Shown one piece after another: positions 248-21,840 of a DNA stretch of 26,344 nt. The DNA comes from a candidate division FCPU426 bacterium (GTDB taxonomy: Bacteria > Oederibacteriota > JAAXVQ01 > JAUVAV01), in NCBI GenBank assembly GCA_030637655.1, contig DAOWGI010000083.1, positions 1-26,344 of the forward strand, read 5' to 3'. The position numbers and the translations under genes were made by a program. Under the pieces are notes generated by a model. That model did not search any database and was not told where the DNA came from. It saw nothing but the letters and a program-made list of their open reading frames with translations. Each line of letters opens with the position of its first letter. The stretch's first letter is position 1.

Positions 248-304
248 TTTGATTTCCCTTTCATATACATTTAATTTAGTGATAGATATAAGTCTGTTGT
301 TTTA

Positions 305-332
305 AGTATATCACTAAAAATCAAAAAGGCAA
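305..332 (-). promoter_or_regulatory. Putative sigma70 promoter of the paralogue (TTGCCT-16nt-TATACT with extended -10 TG)
   Basis: The same motif and spacing are conserved upstream of the other paralogue at 11514-11541. Confidence 0.6.
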
Positions 333-412
333 TAATCGCAAATGTTTTTAATTGTTTGCAGTTGGGTGTTTCAATTCAAAACGGGTTTTGAGGTTAAAAA
401 AAGCATATTTTC

Positions 413-476: not shown

Positions 477-3400
477 TTACGCTGCGTTGGCAAAACTAAA
501 CTGGAGCGTGCGTCTTTCATTTATCCTGGCAGCCAAATCCGGCTCCATTTCAAATGCTCCTTCTATTTTATAGCTATAAAGCAAGGCATTCTGCACTATG
601 GCACCCATGCGCAGCGCCTTGGGAATATATATTTTATGCGGTCCATTAGCTGCGCTGGTATATGTTCCCAGTACGGCTGTTTCCCTGCCGAACATTTTCG
701 AATTTTCAAAGTATTTACCCAGGCTCAATAAAGCTGCTTCATAATCTTTAGCAGTTGTCCCTGTTTGTCGGGCTTGGTATTTTAATATGCTCATAAGGGA
801 ACGCGCGAACTTTGCTTTCGCGGCTTTTTTCTTCCGGTCACTTTTCGCCAGGCAATAGGCATTATAATGCTGCAGCGGCGCTTCTATTTTACCAAACTGT
901 TTTGTAAAAATAGCATGGCCGATAAGAGACTCCACTTCTTGGTCAAAACTTCTCTGAATAGCAGCAGTTATTGGTTTAATGTTCGGCAAAACTTCCTGAC
1001 AGGGAACCACTGCAACCAGCGTAGCCGGGTCCAGCGCGTTGGCAGTAACATCAGCATCCGATTTTATGAAAACATGCGAAATAGCCGGTATGGCAACTCT
1101 AACTTTTTGGCCCGAGGGAGCTGTTACTGTCTTTTCCACTACTCTATCATTGTGCACCATGGCATTTACCTGATAGGGCAGTAACCCCCCGCCCAAATTG
1201 ACAAAGACCGGCTGGTCAGGAGCAATCTGCGCTAAAATCTGCTTTAACTGCGCGCTCTCAACTGCTGTCAATATCCCATTTTCTCTGGTCAAAATACTCT
1301 GAATAAAGTTCAATACATCCTTTAGCTTTCGGTTTTCACCAACCTGATCCAAAAGTTTTGCCGCTATTTGTTGATAAATTCCAGGAACCTCTGACTTGTC
1401 AGCAAACAAAAGATGGGCCATATCATATTTTTTAGGCAGATCTTTTTCATTTATGTTCAGCAGTTCCAGCTTTAAAGCAGCGCTATTGACCCCGTACTTT
1501 AAACGCATAAGCTGTTCCTGAATGCTCCGCACCACGCCTTCCAGAAGCTCCGGCTGGTCTATTGTTTCTAAAATCATTTCTCGCATGCTTTGCAGTGAAA
1601 GACGAAGCGCAGGATTCTCAATTTTCGCGATTTGTTCCTGGCTCAAGTTTTGTATTATATATGCAGTCCATTTAATATTTTTATCCCAACCCTTGCCTAA
1701 GGTTATCTCCAGTTGTTTAGTCATTTCCACACTGTCCCACAAACTGCCGGCTTTTTTGTTAACCATTGACCCGATAATATTCAGGATTTCCAGAATCTGC
1801 GGGCCAGAAACGCCGATTTGTCTTTCTACATTCTGCTTACTATAAAAAGCAGCCACAGCAGATACTCCATGCTCTGCCGGCTTATTTAAGTCACCGGCTG
1901 TTCGCCAGGTAACGCCCGGACCATAAATTTTGCTGAGTTCATCCGCTGCTTCTGCTCCTGCCTGGATTGCCTTTATCGCATATTTGTCAAATTGCTGATC
2001 CAGCTTCCAGGCAATAAATCTCGAGATTGTCCGCCATATAATATTGTCCTTGCTTTTTTTCACTATATATCCTGCCCAGGCCGGCATGCTTATAATAGTT
2101 TCGAAATCTTCTTCTGTTAGTCTCGAAGTTAAACCCTTAGCAGCCTGCGGTTTAAGCTTACGTTCCACGTAAAATTCACCGCATTCCACGAAGAGGTTTT
2201 TTTCAATCTTTTCACCGAACATCGGCCCAAAAATAGCCTGCTTAAAATCATCTCTCTTTCCGTATATTTTCGCATAGATGATTTTACCAAAAGAAGTATC
2301 CTTTAGCGACGCATTGGATTTCGTTGCCCCTAAAAATTGCCTCATGGATTCACGGTCAAACGGCTCCATGGTGGTTAAAAAATTCACTAAATAGTGCGAG
2401 ACTATCCAAAACGAGAAAAGTATGCCCAGGCTCAAGCCGGGTGACAAGAAAAGAAAATGCACGACTATCAGAACAAAACTATTGAGTATAGCCAACTTAT
2501 TGGCTATTTCTTGTCTTTCTTGCAGCACAGACTCATTGATTCCACTTTTGCCGCTTTTATCATAATGAGCCCTGGTGAATACGCCCCCTTTAAATTCATC
2601 ACCCACGCTGGGGAGTGTATAAAAGAAAAAGCTTGCTTCAATTACCTTAGTGGTTACAGCCCAATTTCCGGCCCACAGACTTGTAGCCATAAAAATAATC
2701 GCGAAAAACGGAATCCCCGGAATCACTAATTCCGCGGGGCTAGCGAATTTCCGGATATACGTACGGCTTGAAATGCCCAGCTTTTTTGCCCACGCTTCCA
2801 GCCGCCACATGGCGCCGCCGGTTGGTGCCGGCGGTTTCCGGCCACGCTTCATGTCTTCAGCATTATCCGGGACTATGTCCGCTGTGACAGCTGATACCGC
2901 GTACATACTGATTTCATCCAATTCTTTATCAAATTCCGGCCGTTTATCTTCGCTCACTTTTTCTAACAATATCTTTTCCACTATCTCAGGATGTTTTAGT
3001 AAATATTCCACTTCCAACCCGTGTAAAAAACCAGATACCGCGCTAACTTCCCGATCGCCCTTGACTATTTTAACCGCACTCAGACGTTGCAACAAAGCAG
3101 CCATGACCACAGAACGCATGCTGATTATGGAGTCATATTCCCCATGCAAATATTTGTATTGTTCCATGAACAAGGGCATAGGCAAAAAGAACCTGCGGTG
3201 GTTTTCAACATATTTTTCAAACTCCCCATCTTGCCGCACTTGCCCATCCGGCGCGCCTGCCAGACCGAGCCTCCCTTTGCACCAATGCCATAAGCGCTCG
3301 GACTGTGTAATAAAAGTATCATGAATTACATCACCCAAAGTAAATTTACCCTCTTGATAAAAAGAATAATAAAAAAACCTGACCAAGATAATGATGACAG

Positions 3401-6400
3401 GCAATCCGGAGAGCAATAAAACAATGGGCACCAAGATAACTATATTATTATCAAATTGCATTATAAAGGGTAAACCTTGATAGAACAGCAAGAATTCGTA
3501 AACCAGAAAAGCTATTGTTGGTATTGCGGCCATAAACAAGCTTAGGAGCTTGTCAGCTTTCCCTAAATTGCTTGTAAAATATTTTTTAACCAAGAAAATA
3601 TCGCACGCGCTGCATGTGCCGGCATAGGATGGAAATCGTTCTTCCAATAAAATTGCCCTTTTTTTCACCTTATGGTTGGCTATTATTTCGGCTAAATTCC
3701 CGGCGTAAAAATACAGGTCATGATGGCCTACAGAGAGGTAGACTTTCTTGCCCTTTACGTCCACTTTTAAACTGCGGGTTTTTTCCTCTATTTGTTCAGT
3801 TTTCTGAGGATAATATTCAGGAAACACCTTGTCCCAAAGTTCGGAGATTTGGTCCACAAAGACCAACTTTTGTTCCGGGCTGTGGGGACGTCTTGTAATC
3901 AATCCTTTTTCCAAAAAAACATCAGCCAAACGGTCAAAATCATCCGCTTGCAGGATAAGTTCTGCCAGGTTCTGCATAGATACACCCATTTGCTCTGCTT
4001 TATTTAATATTATCTCAGCATCGTAGTTCCGGGTCGTCTCTTTGAACTCCAACCAGGCCGACAACCTGGTTAATCCTTGATTGATCAGAAAATTATTTAC
4101 CCAGGTTACCGCAAACATATAAGGCATGGTTAAAGAGGTTATAACCACTGAATCATTTTTTCGCGCTCGGCTCGGCGTCCAGCCTAACCTCTTTGCCAGG
4201 GAGGCGCCGGGCGTGCGAGCAGGTTGTTTCTTGGTTTTTTTATCTTCCACGGTACCTCGCAAATCCAGTACATAAGAAGCAATTGCAGAATCAGTGTCCG
4301 GCGCCTGTTCCTTAATTCTCTTAATAAGTTCGCGTAATCGTCCTGCTAAACTACACTGGTGGAAATCATCACCTGTTTTAAATATAATTCCGGGAGAGAC
4401 ATCACCATATGCGTCTTTAAGGAAATTTGACTTTCGTTCAACCCCAGGCATAACTATATCCTGCTTCCCGCCTTTTCCCCACCGCACTAATGCCCAAAAA
4501 GCTTCCTGCGCTAAATTAATACGGCCATAAAGTATACCCGTATCATTATAAATATTTTCTTCCAGATAAATATTTTCCTCCAGCAATTGGATAATTAATT
4601 CCACAATATCACGGTCAATAAATTCGATATATTCCGGATTAGATAGTACCAATAACGCTTGCAGGCGTACGTAAGGATCAGCTGACTGCAATGCCCGTTT
4701 ATAGATAGGTAGGCTTTTAGGTTTTTTGAAGCGGGCGGCAAGCAATACCAACCCCTGATCAAACTCCCGCGGGCTTTGCACAAGTTCTGTGACTATCTCC
4801 TCCTCCGCAACTCCCCAATTTCTCAGCAGTCCAATGATTAGGTCACGTGTTGGGGATGTTATTTCCCAAGTAGGTAAAAATTTAATAAAATCTGATTTTA
4901 AATCTTTCAGATCATGTTTTTTTGCGAAAGCGGCAATTTCCGATATATCCTCCGAAGAAAAAGACCTTTTCCCAAGCATCCGGCGCAGGCCCGGCCGCAT
5001 TAGGGATGGATCAATTTTAGCGAAAACATTTAAAAGCGCCATTTGGAAGACAATATCTCCGCTGCCGGGTTCTGCGAGCTTCTCCACATAATATGTGAAT
5101 AGTTTATATAATCTTCCATTAAGATTTTCAGATTGTTTAAGAACTGACTTTGAATAACCATTTAAGGCCTTGGCTGCTTCTCTTCTGTCCTTTGAAAAAG
5201 TTGGTCTTTTTATAATCCCTAAGAAAGAAAAAGTATCTTTCTCTATTACCCGCAAAAAGATTGTCAGGTTTTCTTGGGTATCCATACCTTTGACTGCCCG
5301 CGCTTTTTCGGCTGCTATTGACAGCAGGGGCAATGTTTTTGCGATTCTGGCTCTTAAGCCTTTCTCTTTTTTCCTCCACTCAAGAACTTTTTTGTTATAC
5401 CAGGCATGGACCCAAATGTTTAATTGTCTCGCTTTATCATTATCCCTTATCAGCTTTCTGCCTATTTTCACTCCGTAATTCGCGCTAATAAAAATAAGTA
5501 TTATTGGAATTACCCCTGTTACTTTTAATATTACTGTTAGTGCATAAATAGACAGAGGCAAAATCAACATCCACAAATACATTGTAGCTGCCAAAACAAA
5601 ACCAGCCCACCATAGCCGCATTTCTTCTTCTCTCCCCTTATGCGCGGCTTGAAAAATGTCGGTTCGCTTCAGTGTATAAAACAATGCCGGCATTAATGCC
5701 GCTATAAGAGGCGCAGTCCCGGGATAATGAAAGACTAACAATAAAAACACTACTGCCGTAATCTCCTGAATTATCCTCCCGGGAAAAAGGAGAAGCAATT
5801 GTTCATCTACCCCTTTCCAGTTTAATACTATTTTTTTCAGCTCGTTTTTCTCAAGCAATTCATTTATTTCTGCTTGTAATTCCCAAAATGCCTCCTTCTC
5901 CCTGTCCGGGACAAATAGTAATGATTCGTGTTTAGGCACTATTTCTGTAGTGATTTCATAGTATAAGTCAAACTGATCTTCAGCAAACCCCGGATTAGCT
6001 TCCGCTAAAGCGCTATCTACTATGGATAGCAGCGTCTTTTTTTGTATTCGAGATTTTACTTCCGTAGGCAACACCTTTTTCGATTCACAATATCGATTAA
6101 ATTTATAGTGCAAATACAGGAAGGCTGCAATACTGATCAGGAGATTTACGGAAGGAAAAACATAGGTGGGAATAGCCAGCCACAACAAACCTGTGATCAG
6201 CGATATGAAGGCGGTAATCACGGCATTTTTCAGAGGCGTTTTAGTTTTAGTGCGCAGAAATGGCAGTAGCTTGTCCAAATGGAACAACACCGGATAGAGA
6301 ATCAGGGCCAATTTGAATGTGCTCTGTGAAATCGCCATTAAGCTGTCCGTGGGCAGCCATTGCGCCATGATAGGATGCGTTCCCCACAGGCTGCTTAAGC

Positions 6401-9400
6401 CCCAGAGCCCTATTCCGCCGGCTATCAGCACCCAGGCAATCTCAATAAAAACCAGATACTTGTCATATGTCTTTTCTGTCATCGGAAACCGCTTAAGCGT
6501 CCAGGTCTTTAACAGCGCGAATTTGCCGCCGAGCGATGCAGCAGTGCCGGATTTGATATCCTTATCAAAACCCGATAATTCCAGTTTCTCCAGCTCAATG
6601 GATCTTTGCAATTTTGACGTATCCACGCCTTTTGGCGCTTCAGCAAAGAAGTGGCCGAAAAACTGCCCGATTTTCGCATTCAAATATTTTAGCGGAGTAT
6701 CTTTTAGGGTCTTGTTGGCATTATGCTTTTGCAATACTTCAATCACGGCTTGTTCTGCTGCCGGGGTAAATTTCCCCAGGTCTTTCACCCGCATCAATTC
6801 CATGTGCTTGAGTTCTTTGGCAACCCATCCGACAATATCGCCAATGGCTTCCTTTTCGTCTCCAGTAAATCCTTCTGCGAATTTATTGGCCCAGGCAATA
6901 AATTCCGGCGTTTCGATATCCCACATCACAGTACCTGAATTTGTAAGGGTCAAAGTCCCGTTTACTAATCCTTTCCAAACCGGTACTTTTCCTATTCTCT
7001 CTCTGACTTGTTCAAAAGCGCGCTCAACATCCTCTGGATTAACCACGTTACTCTGCGCGGCTTTATCTTCTGCGGACAATTGCTTCAACTTAGGATACAG
7101 AACCGTAGCATGAAATTGGCCGGGCCGGGTAAAGGCCGCTTTAAAGCCATATTCTTCGGCCACTTGCTCTAAGTCCTTTTCAACCTCTTTCATTTTATCT
7201 TCCAATTTCTTATTAGCGCTATCTTTTCCAACAACAATAGTTATAGGCGAATACTTTTTACCTGCAAAAACATTTTCAATATTTTTTCTTAAAACATCCG
7301 GATCAGTAATCAGATATTTAGGCTTAAAATCAGCTTTCCATAACCACACCGCGATTATTGCCAAAACAAATATGACTATCAGATTAAATATGGCTTCCGG
7401 AGTATATGGTAAAATAAATCCCAACCCTATTCCGCCCAAATACAACGCCCAAATCACCCCTGCTGCCTGCAGGATATATACGTAAGTCAAAGAGCCAATG
7501 CTGCCAAAAATGTTATGAGTAAACGTTTCAAAAATTCGAATTATTTTTGCACCCCATAATTTACCTCCCATAGCTGTCATCGCCGATTTAGGCAAAATTG
7601 TATTTTGGCCGCGCTGCCACCTTAATGCGCTCCCCAGTGATTTGATGAGCGCTTGTGGAACAGTTAATCCTTTTTCCCGGTTTAATTCAAAGCTTAAACG
7701 CTGAATAGTAATACCTAAAAACAGCACTCCTAACGCCAATCCTGCAAATAAAAACCATATCCCAGAGGCATAATAACCCAGCCCTGCGACTCCCAAGCTT
7801 GAGATATAAGCTCTCCAGGGAGTTAATTCTCTTACAAATATTTTCATATACCAATACGATGTCAAACCAAAAGCGATTACGCCCCACAAAGGCGCCAGCG
7901 CAAAAATAAAGCCGATGTTGGCTGCTGCCAGGATGTAGGTAAACAGCACTTTAATTTTTGCTTCAAGGGTTAGACCATCCCAGCGGTCTTGTTTTAATAC
8001 ACGCTTGTTAGGAAAAATTGCCCAACCCAGACAGATATCTATTAGCATTAATTTGGAAAATCCAATACTGGTATTAACAAAGCCTACATACAGAGCGGTC
8101 ACTACAGCCACAAATCCAATGCTTCCCAATGACAACTCCTCTTTTGGTAATGGCCTTTTGTCTGATTCCGCACCTGTCACCGGATTCTCTTCATTTTCAA
8201 GTTCTTTGAAGCCATTCACCAATTCATGCAGAAAACTGCCGACTGGGACAGCTAACCTTGCGAGCATTACGTCTGCCAAAGGCAGCTGGCTTGGCATGCT
8301 AGCTAACATTGCCACCACTCCCAATAACAACAGCGAACTTACCGTGGCTGACATGGCGGCGTGGGCAGCCAGGTCGAATCTTTGATAAGGTGTTTGCTTT
8401 TCAGCTAATTTAAGGGAAGACACATACTTGCTTTTCCCGGAATCATACACAAGCACGCCCCAAACATAATGAGCAACTAAAAAGGCAACAAAAATTACGA
8501 CTGCAGGCACTATGATAAGCCAGCCGAAATCAATGAGAGTATGCGTGTCCTTTAGAATAAAATGCAGCACCGGAAAAAAATAAATAAACGCGGCTGCCAA
8601 GCCTTCGTACCTTCCCGCCTGGCGCGGCGTCCAGCCGCGCTTCTCTGCCCAGGGCCCGCCGATAGCGCCGGGAGTGCGATCAGCTAAACTTAAATCAGCT
8701 GATTCATTTGTAGCATCAATAAATTGAAGTTGCCCATTAACAAAACTTGCATAACCTACACTATCGTGAGCAGCAAAAATTATGTAATGATTGGGAAATA
8801 CTTCCCAACACCACTTACCATCCCTCTTCGGAGAATGTCCGACGACAAAAACCGCATTAGGTTGGCCTATATTTCCAAGAAAATTCTTCACATCTGGATA
8901 ATTATAGTCCTCATGATACCTATTTCGTTCCAACTGATAAACAATAGGATTATCCTTATTTGCAACATCTACATTTTTAATATCATCGAGGGTTACGCCG
9001 CCTTTTACAGGACCGGCATGACAACCCACAATCCCATCCCCCACACCCATTACAGGACTACTATTAATAAATTCTTCATATTTTTCCAAATAGTCCTTCC
9101 CATATCTCTCCCTTAATTTATTTTTGTACACTTTCCCTTGAGAAACACCGTTTATACTAAAGTCCGCTGATAAATAATCGTGATTGCCTAATACATAGTA
9201 AACATTATCTTTATTCTGTATTTTCAACTTCATAATAAACTGCATAATCTCAATTGAGGTATCCATTTCCGCTAATTTTTCTTGTTTTTCATTATGTACC
9301 GCATCACCTAAAATAACTAAAACCGCTTCTCCTCTATTTATCTTGCCAAGATTATCATTTGCATTTAATGTTTTTTTCAGATTATCCAAACGTGTATGTA

Positions 9401-17979: not shown

Positions 17980-18996
17980 CTAACGTACAATAGCGACCCT
18001 GATTGTTTTATGCATTGAAGCAGAATCAATCCGGATCAAATATACGCCTGAAGCTACCTTCTGATCATTGGCGTTTCTGCCGGACCAGACAATTTGACCT
18101 GAACTAACCTGCCCGGTAATCAGGGCTCGGATCATAACTCCTCGAGTATTATATATTTTAATTGTAACCTTTTCATTTGCCGGCAGCTGATTCAAGTTAA
18201 TTTTCAGTTCATCTCCCTTATCCGGGTTGAACCAGTTGCGGTCCACCATCAACCCTGGCAAAAGGCCAGGCGTAGAGGTCGCGGTATACGTACTCGTACC
18301 GGGTATAACCGGTGTAGCTATCATAACTGTCGGCGTGGCAGTAGGTGTACTCGTAATTGTCAGCGCACTCGTAACTGTCGGCGTGGCAGTAGGTGTACTC
18401 GTAATTGTCAGCGTACTCGTAACTGTCGGCGTACTCGTAACTGTCGGCGTGGCAGTATATGTACTCGTAATTGTCGACGTAGGAGACGGTCCAGCTACGG
18501 TTACACTTCCATTTGTCAAGTTAAATGGCATTTCTCCAGAAATTTCGTCAACAATTACTATGTTGCTTAGTGTCAGCGGAGATATCCCATTTGCTTTCGA
18601 GGTTAAAGTAATGGAAACGAAAGTTCCGGAAGAAGAAACCAAGTCTGGAAACAATAGAGTAAAAACATTAGTGACAGTCCCATTTATATTATCAATCGTT
18701 CCTTCTCCAAAGACAAACGCAGGCTGAAATAAATTTCCTTCAATTACGTGATTCACTTCGACAATGTCAGGATCAAAATTCAGATCAGCCTGCATGCCGC
18801 TTGACAAATCACCTTGAAGATCAACATGGATATCAATTGAAAAAACCCGGCCCAATTCATTAATTGTTTGGCTGGCGGGTTCTATACTAACCTCGGCGGC
18901 TCTGGTAATACAAGCGATTAGCAGCATAAAAACAGATATAAGCAGCAGCACTTGTGTTTGGCGGTTCAAAGAATTTTTTTCACGGTTCACATGCAT
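17980..18996 (-). CDS. Secreted protein: cohesin-like domain, Thr/Pro linker, C-terminal FlgD-Ig/T9SS-like sorting domain
   Basis: GMQADLNFDPDIVEVNHVIEGN (cohesin-like), TPTATPTVT repeats, and NWFNP...IKIYNTRGVMIR...WSGRNANDQKVASGVYLIRI. Confidence 0.85.
   Translation of the reverse strand: MHVNREKNSLNRQTQVLLLISVFMLLIACITRAAEVSIEPASQTINELGRVFSIDIHVDLQGDLSSGMQADLNFDPDIVEVNHVIEGNLFQPAFVFGEGTIDNINGTVTNVFTLLFPDLVSSSGTFVSITLTSKANGISPLTLSNIVIVDEISGEMPFNLTNGSVTVAGPSPTSTITSTYTATPTVTSTPTVTSTLTITSTPTATPTVTSALTITSTPTATPTVMIATPVIPGTSTYTATSTPGLLPGLMVDRNWFNPDKGDELKINLNQLPANEKVTIKIYNTRGVMIRALITGQVSSGQIVWSGRNANDQKVASGVYLIRIDSASMHKTIRVAIVR
18324..18480. repeat. Tandem 48-bp/18-bp repeats encoding the Thr/Pro linker
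   Basis: taactgtcggcgt... units start at 18324, 18372, 18420 and 18438. Confidence 0.9.
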
Positions 18997-19680: not shown

Positions 19681-21840
19681 TTATTTCTTTTCCAGCTTTT
19701 TCAAAATAGTTATTATTTCCTGATCACCTTTTTTCTCGGCAATTTTCATGGCAGTAGTGCCAATAGCATACTCTTTATATACAATCTTCCCGGCTTTAGC
19801 AAGTTTGGCATTAACCTCCACGCCTTTAGTAATTAACCACCTGACATTCTTGGCATTTCCATAATGTACTGCATAATGCAGCGGGGTCGCGCCAATCCGG
19901 CTCTTTATATTAACCTCCGCGCCCTGCGAGATAAGCCACTCAAGTAATTTTTCATTCTCCAATTGCACGGCGTTATAAATCGGGGTCAAACCTTTTTCGT
20001 CCCTGGCATTAATATCAGCGCCTTCACGCACTAAATATTTCACGTTCTCCAGTATACCGCTGGTAACGGCAACAAAAAGCGGGGTCGCGCCTACATTAAT
20101 ATTTATATTAACCTCGGCCCCCTTTTGCAGCAAAAATTTAATTACCGGCAATCTTCCGCTTTGCGCCGCACAATACAGAGGATTATAAACCCCCTTGCCA
20201 AGATTCACATCGGCTTTATGCGCCAGCAAAAACCGGACCATTTCGAGATTCCTGTTCTGTACCGCCTGCGCCAGCGGAGTTATCCCCACATTGGTCATAA
20301 CATTGACTTTTCCGCCTTTTCGAACTACAAATTTCGCCGGTTCTATTAAGCTATGCGAAGCTATCTTGTGTAAACAAGTAGTGCCGTCTTTAGTCCGGAA
20401 ATTAACATCCGCTCCTTTATCCAACAGATAACTTATTATAGGTTTTGAAGCACAATAAAAACATAAAAGCGGAGTATTGCCCTCATTGTCTCTAGCCTTA
20501 ATTTCCGCGCCCTGGTTAATTAATAATTTTATCATGTCAAGATTAGAAGATTCACATGCTTGATGCAGCGGAGTTCTTCCCTGGGTATTACGGGCATTAA
20601 CATCAGCGCCCTGGTTAATCAAATAACCGGCATTATCAAGGTAACCATAACTCGCAGCCAAATGCAGCGGGGTATTGCCGGCATTATCCAGCACATTAAC
20701 ATTTTTATTTTTAGCAATAATCATTTTTAACAAATCAAAATTGGGACCTCCGGCAGCCACATGCAGCAAAGACATGCCGGCATTGACTTTTTCATTTACA
20801 TTAGCTCCTTGGGATATCAAATAGGCCGCGATTTCCAGCGAGGAACTGACCGCTATTTGCAAAGGAGAATAGCCATAACTGGTTTTAAGATTCAGTTCGG
20901 CGCCATGTTTAATTAAATATTTAACTATTTCCAAATCCAAAGCGCTGATCGCGGCTATTAATGGGCTACTCAATTCCTGCTGGCCGGAACTGTTTATTTC
21001 CGCCCCATTGGCCACAAAGATTTTTGCGATCGCCAAATTCCCCCTGTTGCAAACGTTATATAATGGCGTTACTCCACAAGTGCTTTTCACATTTAAGCTT
21101 GCGCCCTGGTTAATTAACAGTTTGGCAATCTCCGGATCATTATTCACTTTAAAGATTGCGGTTTCTCCACCCTGATCTTTAATATGCAAATCAGCGCCTT
21201 GCTTAAGTAAAAGCTTAACTATTTCAACGGCATCGCTCTGCACTGCCGCCATCAGCGGAGTCAGACCATAACTATTCTTTTGGTTTTTATCCAGCCCGGC
21301 TTTAATCAGTTTCTGCGCGATTTCCGGATTACCGCCATTCTCAGCCACAATATGCAACAAAGTATCCTGATATCTGGTTTTAATTCGTATATTTTCCTGC
21401 TTTTGCAGGAACCAGTTCAATACTGCGTTGTTTTCACCCAAGGCGGCATAAAATACCGCATTCAGACCATTGGAATCTTTGGTTTTTAAATCAGCGCCTT
21501 TGCTTATAAGATATTGGACCAGTTCCAGACTCCCATTACGTGCGGCTAAATGCAAAGCTGTGGTACCTTTGCTATTCCGAATAGTAATTTTCGCGCCTTT
21601 TTCGAGCAATAGTTTAACCATAGCTTTATTTCCCTCGGCTGCCGCAACTTGTAAAGCCGTATAATCATTCAAATTTTTCACAGTCAAACTGGCGCCGTCA
21701 TCCAGGGCCTTTTTAACCTGATTAATCTCCCCGGCATTAATTGCTTTGAACAAATCAACATTAGCATTCGCATAACTCAGGCTTGCGCAGCCAAGCAGAG
21801 CTATTCCACAGATCAACCGCAAAAATGTTTTTTGTTTCAT
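19681..21840 (-). CDS. Exported ankyrin-repeat protein (about 20 repeats)
   Basis: Signal peptide, repeated GxTPLHxA...LIxxGADVN, and GGAGG RBS. Confidence 0.96.
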   Translation of the reverse strand: MKQKTFLRLICGIALLGCASLSYANANVDLFKAINAGEINQVKKALDDGASLTVKNLNDYTALQVAAAEGNKAMVKLLLEKGAKITIRNSKGTTALHLAARNGSLELVQYLISKGADLKTKDSNGLNAVFYAALGENNAVLNWFLQKQENIRIKTRYQDTLLHIVAENGGNPEIAQKLIKAGLDKNQKNSYGLTPLMAAVQSDAVEIVKLLLKQGADLHIKDQGGETAIFKVNNDPEIAKLLINQGASLNVKSTCGVTPLYNVCNRGNLAIAKIFVANGAEINSSGQQELSSPLIAAISALDLEIVKYLIKHGAELNLKTSYGYSPLQIAVSSSLEIAAYLISQGANVNEKVNAGMSLLHVAAGGPNFDLLKMIIAKNKNVNVLDNAGNTPLHLAASYGYLDNAGYLINQGADVNARNTQGRTPLHQACESSNLDMIKLLINQGAEIKARDNEGNTPLLCFYCASKPIISYLLDKGADVNFRTKDGTTCLHKIASHSLIEPAKFVVRKGGKVNVMTNVGITPLAQAVQNRNLEMVRFLLAHKADVNLGKGVYNPLYCAAQSGRLPVIKFLLQKGAEVNININVGATPLFVAVTSGILENVKYLVREGADINARDEKGLTPIYNAVQLENEKLLEWLISQGAEVNIKSRIGATPLHYAVHYGNAKNVRWLITKGVEVNAKLAKAGKIVYKEYAIGTTAMKIAEKKGDQEIITILKKLEKK

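Follow-up and report, generated by a model that had tools for sequence, protein, structure and literature searches.

What does a single reading frame of 3,663 codons encode in an uncultured bacterium, and does its product serve the cell that makes it or act outside? The gene that raises this question lies on a 26,344-nucleotide (nt) stretch of a candidate division FCPU426 genome (contig DAOWGI010000083.1, positions 1 to 26,344; hereafter the window), where it occupies 477..11468 of the minus strand (stop codon 477-479) and yields a giant protein of 3,663 amino acids (aa) from Met1 of this frame, from which residues are counted throughout; all features of the gene given below are on the same strand. 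Giant genes of uncultured bacteria are a recognized blind spot, and a first-pass annotation had read this one as a train of effectors comparable to MARTX or polymorphic toxins. On balance, we favor the view that the giant protein belongs to a large, lineage-restricted family of membrane proteins, each built of a head, a variable middle and a tail, and that it acts as one tethered chain and not as a secreted toxin.

The family was surveyed in the window's own genome (3,281,327 bases in 120 contigs), in which a search with aa 1-650 gave 29 matches, and 27 frames of at least 700 aa carry the head, always N-terminally, with three of the 27 cut by contig ends. Together these frames sum to 94,946 aa, or about 8.7% of the genome, and one paralogue reaches 12,216 aa; frames of at least 1,500 aa account for 14% of the genome. 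In a library of 1.84 billion proteins, a profile of the head matched 9,367 cluster representatives at E ≤ 1e-3 and 5,454 at E ≤ 1e-30. Members of the family are mostly of 2-6 kAA (thousand amino acids) and extend up to 13,678 aa, and frames running from head to tail reach 12,551 aa in two genomes assembled into 7-8 contigs. The head was present in 15 of the 99 genomes of the phylum examined, the window's own included (all ten and all four genomes of two families, in one order), and in none of the 84 genomes from the phylum's other 21 families. Head-bearing library proteins were labelled Candidatus Firestonebacteria, Candidatus Goldiibacteriota and candidate division FCPU426, while look-alikes of the head in the Atlas were mostly labelled Omnitrophota (score 0.95), which is a lead only. 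Separately, contigs C20 and C56 of the same genome encode giants of 9,469 and 4,634 aa that lack the head and whose complete C-termini are not [AS][AV], the ending typical of the family (see below); therefore, at least one further giant family exists in this genome.

Behind the head, the paralogues have little in common, and what they share is rearranged. Of the 82,802 residues behind the head, only 28,493 (34%) find a counterpart in any other paralogue at E ≤ 1e-8. A post-head high-scoring segment pair (HSP) is shared by 44 of the 351 paralogue pairs, and in 90% of these HSPs the positions in the two proteins differ by more than 200 aa. For example, aa 928-1106 and 1654-1819 of the giant protein align to aa 1271-1447 and 647-832, respectively, of the paralogue on contig C93. 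Nucleotide identity also varies from part to part: the head is 84-86% identical to those on C10, C57 and C103 and 95% identical to that of a tandem copy, the module that starts at linker L1 (described below) is 76-77% identical to C93 and C103, aa 1812-2040 are 73% identical to C57, and the C-terminus is 81% identical to C4. Among the 15 genomes of the order (14 besides the window's own), aa 2470-3663 had no colinear orthologue; matches occurred in five of the 15, again counting the own genome, and the best foreign one was 28% identical over the C-terminal module only. Full-length colinearity of the paralogues had been named beforehand as the observation that would speak against modularity, and the reverse was found, since seven pairs share at least two post-head HSPs and three of these seven have them in a different order. 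The modular reading therefore stands, and the earlier idea of a constant head with swappable cargo is borne out by 27 frames whose only common part is the head and whose later modules are patchy and non-colinear. Duplication and recombination have reshuffled the mosaic middles, the breakpoints lying at juxtamembrane junctions, and the middles can serve as a natural experiment on how domains are exchanged at such places.

All members start alike: a basic N-terminus leads into a single hydrophobic segment, which is followed by a TIKI-fold head of about 420 residues that carries an invariant D-x-H...E...H set. In the giant protein, the hydrophobic segment is aa 29-47 (11328..11384; hydropathy 1.93), a signal anchor or a cleavable signal peptide, and the head is aa 48-470 (10059..11327), predicted as an alpha/beta core of the TIKI/TraB/ChaN/erythromycin-esterase kind with a helical insertion. 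An alignment of 24 heads showed invariant D94, H96, C97, E100, Q102, E124, G125, G408, G409 and H411 and an NPYF motif. Structural comparison was based on an AlphaFold2 (AF2) model of the head with a predicted local distance difference test score (pLDDT) of 77.8. Foldseek placed EreC first (E 1.1e-3, probability 0.99) and Bcr135 next, and VIA gave ChaN (2g5g, Z 10.1, root-mean-square deviation 4.7, 164 residues aligned), HopBA1 (5t09, Z 9.9), EreC (6xcq, Z 8.9), Bcr136 and Bcr135 (2qgm and 2rad, Z 8.6 and 8.1), PMT (Z 7.0) and RRSP (Z 6.8), all within the first 11 rows. These are structures of the TIKI superfamily as described in the available text of PMC6254334, which also gives the 2His/2Glu catalytic set of RRSP as E3900, H3902, E3930 and H4030. 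Counted over the heads of the own genome and two libraries, the candidate catalytic residues are kept in 191 of 192 (D94), 192 of 192 (H96) and 194 of 194 heads (E124 and H411 alike), and the spacing of 28 residues from H96 to E124 equals that from H3902 to E3930 in RRSP, going by the numbering in that text.

By its model, then, the head is a TIKI/TraB/ChaN/erythromycin-esterase-like hydrolase fold with a predicted catalytic set. It agrees with the superfamily in fold (a parallel beta-sheet within an alpha/beta core; Z 8-10), in the set of two His and two acids and in the RRSP-like His-to-Glu spacing, but differs in that its first acid is Asp instead of Glu, in that a helical insertion of about 200 residues divides its core, and in its constant N-terminal place, preceded by a signal-like segment, in giant membrane proteins. 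No Pfam or NCBIfam model matched aa 1-480 at E ≤ 1, including TIKI-superfamily models such as PF01963 (TraB_PrgY_gumN). The head is probably exported to the periplasm, because net charge drops from +3.4 before to +0.4 after the transmembrane (TM) segment and because P41...T44-W45-A46|F47 follows a signal-peptidase pattern. More exactly, Pro stands at -6 and Thr-Trp-Ala precedes F47, with P41, W45, A46 and F47 conserved; this fits the -6/-3/-1 pattern, so that cleavage at this site could be expected.

The family is also marked at its other end, by a tail that the first-pass annotation did not contain. In the giant protein, it is the last 60 aa (480..659), reading ...IYIPKAL...GA....AL.......RINERRTLQFSFANAA-COOH, and in general it comprises about 50 conserved, Arg-rich residues with the terminus ...[G/S/Q/N]-A-A. 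Complete family C-termini in the own genome end in [AS][AV] in 20 of 23 cases (14 of 23 in AA), compared with three of 67 other frames of at least 1000 aa, all three being 5'-open, with heads perhaps lost at contig ends. The best 150 head-bearing library representatives include 69 that end in AA and 17 in SA, while in a separate set of 100 head-bearing proteins from elsewhere (2,014-6,411 aa) 80 end in [AS][AVS] and 56 in AA; distant head-bearing members end in -RSL or -QAL. A right-anchored profile of 106 distinct tails showed 45-53% basic residues at -12 to -10, Arg enrichment also at -7, 69% hydrophobic residues at -5 and a small residue at -3, and the tail alignment stretches the motif to about 50 residues (I.IP..L, GA.G...D.L and ..(I/V)D). 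In two related, nearly closed genomes (7-8 contigs), five of seven tail matches lie in frames of 2,613-12,061 aa that start with the head. The tail is thus exclusive to the head-bearing giant family. Four 5'-open frames on contigs C12, C98 (3-11051), C112 and C7, of 1,817, 3,683, 1,689 and 466 aa, were also observed to carry the tail with no head in the contig; these are probably additional family genes truncated where the contigs stop.

The last nine residues are probably exposed, since they fall below pLDDT 50 in the AF2 model of aa 3040-3663. Degrons of the ssrA type end in Ala-Ala and are read by ClpXP, FtsH and Tsp. The tail resembles them in its extreme C-terminus of a small residue followed by Ala-Ala, which would likewise be exposed, but it has basic residues ahead of this end, is encoded in the gene itself, lies within a module of about 50 residues and is limited to one family.

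Between the two ends, hydropathy and paralogue searches agree with the earlier description of an N-terminal anchor and conserved head followed by soluble stretches that alternate with TM bundles. The head is followed by a neck (aa 471-680, 9429..10058) that is common only to the closest paralogues, up to aa 678 in that on C10 and up to aa 615 in that on C57. Next comes a calcineurin-like metallophosphoesterase (aa 684-882, 8823..9419), as the first-pass annotation had proposed: PF00149 (Metallophos) matched at E 5.3e-13 (50.3 bits, the cut-off being 21.5; 5.8e-14 when the segment was searched by itself), the metal-binding motifs GDLH, GDAVHN, GNHD and GHSP can be read in the translation, and this is the sole significant Pfam match in the 3,663 aa. 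TM bundle 1 (aa 954-1377, 7338..8609, from hydropathy, with linker L2 inside) leads to a soluble region (aa 1380-1640, 6549..7331) for which the earlier label of 2H-like could not be confirmed and no family could be assigned, there being no Pfam match at E ≤ 10 and no relative by sequence in the PDB; inspection of the translation gives a single H-A-T-V, and the second candidate motif reads H-M-E-L. TM bundle 2 (aa 1672-1994, 5487..6455, also from hydropathy) precedes a helical-repeat region (aa 2000-2417, 4218..5471) that is 36% identical to aa 832-1004 of the C93 paralogue. Its proposed HEAT nature found partial backing, in that HEAT_2 matched at E 0.003, but with 18.3 bits against a cut-off of 27.7 the match is weak.

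The region of aa 2433-2880 (2829..4172) contains two TM segments by hydropathy at 2644-2694 and is distantly common to the paralogue on C77. It had been called TraB-like, a label that we could not confirm: Pfam gave no match at E ≤ 10, hhalign of aa 2434-2881 against the head profile gave a probability of 0.3%, and a weak Atlas lead remains, namely a cluster (score 0.76) of which 50% of the proteins carry PF01963. The genuinely TraB/TIKI-like domain of the giant protein is the head. TM bundle 4 (aa 2914-3032, 2373..2729, from hydropathy) is followed by the C-terminal soluble domain (aa 3040-3603, 660..2351), which has a confident AF2 model (pLDDT 79.3 over aa 3040-3663) without a known-fold match, the best Foldseek hit (E 0.04) and the best VIA hit (Z 6.4) both falling on a helical sub-part. 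Sequence searches of the PDB with aa 1380-1640, 2433-2880 and 3040-3663 gave no credible matches.

The first-pass annotation had further proposed that a family of related linkers separates the domains and might mark places where the chain is cut. The five strings lie where they had been placed: L1 at aa 931-948 (8625..8678), L2 at aa 1295-1304 (7557-7586, inside TM bundle 1), L3 at aa 1641-1650 (6519..6548), L4 at aa 2418-2432 (4173..4217) and L5 at aa 2881-2898 (2775..2828). Their kinship did not hold, as they are not related above chance and not family-wide. L1 and L4 form the top 15-mer pair in the protein, with a score of 41 that four of 20 shuffles also reach, and their gapped alignment score of 53 was matched by 11 of 60 shuffled halves. 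Iterated hidden Markov models (HMMs) seeded with each of the five linker-plus-TM modules found none of the others. In the family sequence of 94,946 aa, the expression RTPG...GWTP has only two occurrences, both within the 3,663-aa protein, and GG[KR][LFWIM] is not enriched in the family (11 per 94,946 aa versus 43 per 243,150 aa outside).

What does hold is that three of the linkers coincide with the starts of paralogue-shared modules, these segments beginning at aa 914/932 (L1, 931), 1640/1647 (L3, 1641) and 2878 (L5, 2881). L1 opens a TM module common to the C93 and C103 paralogues, L3 opens a recurrent TM module (GGK..LLK.WT...HLDK...RT..PTPL.NA), and L5, whose junction window has a net charge of +9, opens a C-terminal super-module common to the C4 paralogue. 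Over the family, 99 soluble-to-TM junction windows have a mean net charge of +1.93, compared with 0.03 in random soluble windows, with Trp enriched 1.9-fold, Gly enriched 1.3-fold and Asp/Glu depleted. Because the linkers are unrelated above chance and unenriched, and because junctions at large are basic and Trp-rich, the linkers are generic basic, Trp/Gly-rich juxtamembrane segments that double as module junctions, with no conserved cleavage motif. As a side observation, the TM module of aa 1641-1994 (window 6519-5487) exists in eight copies in six paralogues, the others being on C10, C43, C57, C88 and C93, with the motifs GGKS.LLK.WT..LFP, HLDK and RT..PTPL.NA; the charged residues conserved inside this bundle suggest that it may act in catalysis or transport.

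The cargo carried between head and tail is diverse and largely metabolic. Pfam scans of the own-genome members recovered 16 families, each in one or two rows, comprising DnaJ, Metallophos, LRR_4, Pkinase, AAA_5, HATPase_c, GT1, NTP_transferase, PGK, GH99, LysM, PMI, aldose epimerase, Arm, the ManC beta-helix and a methyltransferase. Among 100 head-bearing proteins from the library, 65 had Pfam matches, to 101 accessions, the commonest (PF01326) in nine and none to Metallophos, and their cargo includes PPDK/PEP-utilizing enzymes, enolase, TIM, PGM, CMP kinase and NUDIX. Judged by these assignments, the cargo consists mostly of cytoplasm-type metabolic enzymes that use nucleotides or S-adenosylmethionine (SAM). 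The load of the giant protein itself comprises the metallophosphoesterase, the helical repeats and three domains without known fold.

In the arrangement that we favor, the N-terminal segment would act as a Sec signal, either kept as an anchor or cleaved, and place the head in the periplasm, where it might work as an esterase or peptidase. The TM bundles (the 27 family proteins have 374 strongly hydrophobic segments) would pass the chain back and forth across the cytoplasmic membrane and could thereby keep the soluble modules tethered to it, in most cases on its cytoplasmic face. Head and tail may be common handling modules at both ends, and a putative partner common to the family might recognize the exposed C-terminal tag; candidates would be proteases of the AAA+ or PDZ kind and factors for export or quality control. 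We tentatively suggest, as a doubtful extension, that the head and the encoded Arg-rich ...Ala-Ala tail constitute a dedicated and hitherto undescribed handling system that controls the insertion, processing or timed destruction of exchangeable enzyme cassettes. If true, it would be a recombination-driven kit for membrane-tethered metabolons or contact-dependent machines, possibly in Omnitrophota too.

Several observations weigh against the tethered-chain arrangement. The topology is read from hydropathy and charge counts only, and positive-inside is not fully self-consistent, as L1 is basic and would yet be external if head and Metallophos are periplasmic. Some paralogue cargo is extracytoplasmic in type, namely LysM and GH99 (each in one of 17 rows), and the predicted catalytic set of the head would suit either a protease or an esterase equally well; self-processing would be compatible with it. 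The assembly also leaves a gap at the head. A 9,254-nt Logan contig from a DNA run, which may be the sample from which the window was assembled, spans window 783-10036 (aa 478-3561) with one difference, and the long middle of the gene is therefore not a stitching artefact. This contig ends at 10036, at the edge of the head, and word depth climbs about fourfold at this point, as expected because the head is a multi-copy element; the head part is broken into fragments among Logan contigs, and the listed Logan contigs do not bridge the join of the head to the rest of the giant protein.

A processed polyprotein, in which the TIKI-type head or another protease cuts near the juxtamembrane junctions to free membrane-anchored enzymes and the gene serves to have a changeable group of units expressed and inserted together, is rather unlikely in our judgment. 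It would make use of the head's fold and its invariant 2His/2-acid set, which belong to a superfamily with proven endopeptidases (RRSP and Tiki), and of the units that start at L1, L3 and L5 and move between paralogues as blocks; cleavage by C39 or S8 domains has also been raised for Omnitrophota giants, in the portion of West-Roberts et al. (10.1101/2023.11.21.568195) available. However, no conserved cleavage motif was found, the linkers show no kinship beyond chance and do not recur across the family, the composition of the junctions is that of any positive-inside, Trp-rich membrane interface, charge puts the head across the membrane from most junctions, and a tail conserved at the far C-terminus fits a chain that is handled whole.

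The effector train proposed in the first-pass annotation, exported or injected in the manner of MARTX or polymorphic toxins, would treat both ends as delivery signals and let the middle act outside the producer, for instance in a host or prey. Constant ends around a variable middle do resemble delivery systems, a conserved C-terminal signal of about 50 aa recalls substrates of type I secretion, and the toxin domains RRSP and PMT have the fold of the head. In addition, Omnitrophota giants are discussed in a context of predation in the accessible text of 10.1101/2023.11.21.568195. Nevertheless, 374 strongly hydrophobic segments in 27 proteins are hard to square with secretion, no RTX repeats, C80 cysteine protease or toxin families were found in the 3,663-aa protein at E ≤ 1, and no secretion or immunity gene recurs within 5 kb of the 27 genes, where the recurrent neighbours are only tandem paralogues and generic response regulators. 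Moreover, the variable part is the middle instead of the C-terminal tip, and in the cargo enzymes of central metabolism and of nucleotide sugars predominate, most of it being of a housekeeping type that uses ATP, NTP or SAM. We regard this explanation as improbable, and the toxin-like reading is better replaced by one in which the cargo resembles membrane-tethered housekeeping metabolism.

Finally, a chimeric contig, or genes fused by misread stops, is hardly credible: although mis-joins are a risk among 27 paralogous heads with nt identities of up to 95%, and Logan contigs break at the head boundary, the frame is open over 3,663 codons under translation table 11 beside genes of normal size, the independent contig runs through aa 478-3561 with a single difference, and the head-to-tail layout is seen again in frames as long as 12,551 aa in 7-8-contig genomes as well as in thousands of library proteins.

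The gene probably starts at Met9 (11442..11444), in agreement with the end coordinate 11444 of the first-pass annotation, because a Shine-Dalgarno-like AAGGAAA lies 6-7 nt upstream and because the downstream tandem paralogue has a like arrangement. That paralogue, also on the minus strand, begins 215 nt downstream of the stop of the giant gene and is cut by the contig end (1..262), and it is identical to codons 4-90 at 93% of aa and 95% of nt. The region upstream of the giant gene (11480..11615, minus strand) is 82% identical to window 271-405 and common to the closest paralogues, leader-like sequence also occurring upstream of family copies on contigs C59, C57, C43 and C10, so that this leader of about 135 nt may be a common promoter or 5'-untranslated-region element. 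DNA of the giant gene occurs in cold-seep metagenome runs.

The other genes of the window encode HIT, FecR, Ig-like, ankyrin, cyclase and radical SAM proteins. One of them (17980-18996, minus strand) specifies a 338-aa protein with a cohesin-like domain and a long Thr/Pro/Ser-rich repeat region, with a weak C-terminal sorting domain of type IX secretion (Por_Secre_tail, E 9.2e-6) just under the cut-off. Another (19681-21840, minus strand) specifies a 719-aa protein made nearly entirely of ankyrin repeats (Ank_2, E 2.6e-125) with a signal-like N-terminus, which is unusual in a free-living bacterium. A 26-nt element forms inverted pairs at window 11627-11652/11717-11744 and 12155-12202/12252-12278 and is also found on contigs C98, C47, C25, C39, C82 and C33; contigs of two runs omit the 65 nt between its arms (11651->11717), which looks like presence/absence variation.

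Among known systems, the closest kind is that of the multi-enzyme giants of Omnitrophota, which are described as having many TM helices or a signal peptide and many metabolic Pfam domains (West-Roberts et al. 2023, 10.1101/2023.11.21.568195; Nielsen & Lui 2026, 10.64898/2026.06.07.730766; both as partially available). The present family is likewise very long, TM-rich and equipped with diverse, mostly metabolic domains. Sugar-nucleotide, kinase, methyltransferase, NUDIX, HIT and HEAT domains are named for the Omnitrophota giants in the available texts, together with much Pfam-dark sequence, as is also seen here, and the family has the trait of class 1 of Nielsen & Lui, as given there, in its many TM helices and 16 Pfam families, none of them dominant. 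One head-bearing library protein additionally has SecA_DEAD (PF07517), a further likeness. The Omnitrophota giants, in contrast, are defined in those texts at 10 kAA or more or 30 kAA or more, whereas our protein has 3,663 aa and the family has non-Omnitrophota labels. Their N-terminal regions "generally lack identifiable domains" (West-Roberts et al., 10.1101/2023.11.21.568195, in the text available), and they cluster mostly as singletons (10.1101/2023.11.21.568195; 10.64898/2026.06.07.730766, in the same portions). A shared TIKI-like head, a shared tail and tens of paralogues per genome are unmentioned in the available portions of these texts, supplements and catalogues aside. Our literature search, supplements likewise aside, found no paper that ties giant proteins to a TIKI/TraB/Ere/ChaN head, nor one on giants of Firestonebacteria.

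The likeness to MARTX proteins lies in large size, constant terminal regions and variable, reassorted internal enzymes, one of which, the MARTX effector RRSP, shares the fold of the head. The giant protein differs from them in having neither glycine-rich RTX repeats nor an inositol-phosphate-activated cysteine protease (C80) domain by Pfam at E ≤ 1, in that type I secretion genes are not found among the window neighbours or recurrently near the 27 paralogues, and in the dozens of TM segments and housekeeping-type cargo of the family. Polymorphic toxins of the Rhs/CDI type share with it the paralogous expansion, a conserved N-terminal part and recombining variable parts, but they have a variable C-terminal toxin tip and an immunity gene, whereas the C-terminus of the family is its most conserved short element, the gene downstream is another family member, and no small downstream gene recurs near the 27 genes.

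Two short, searchable handles, the TIKI-fold head and the Arg-rich ...Ala-Ala tail, now define a family that no Pfam or NCBIfam model covers. Such dark giants thereby become tractable, in that the family can be counted across genomes, and head and tail could be expressed and assayed separately. Compared with the systems above, giant modular membrane proteins as such were already known; what is new is that the family has a handle at either end, that it is present in so many copies and that its modules are shuffled.

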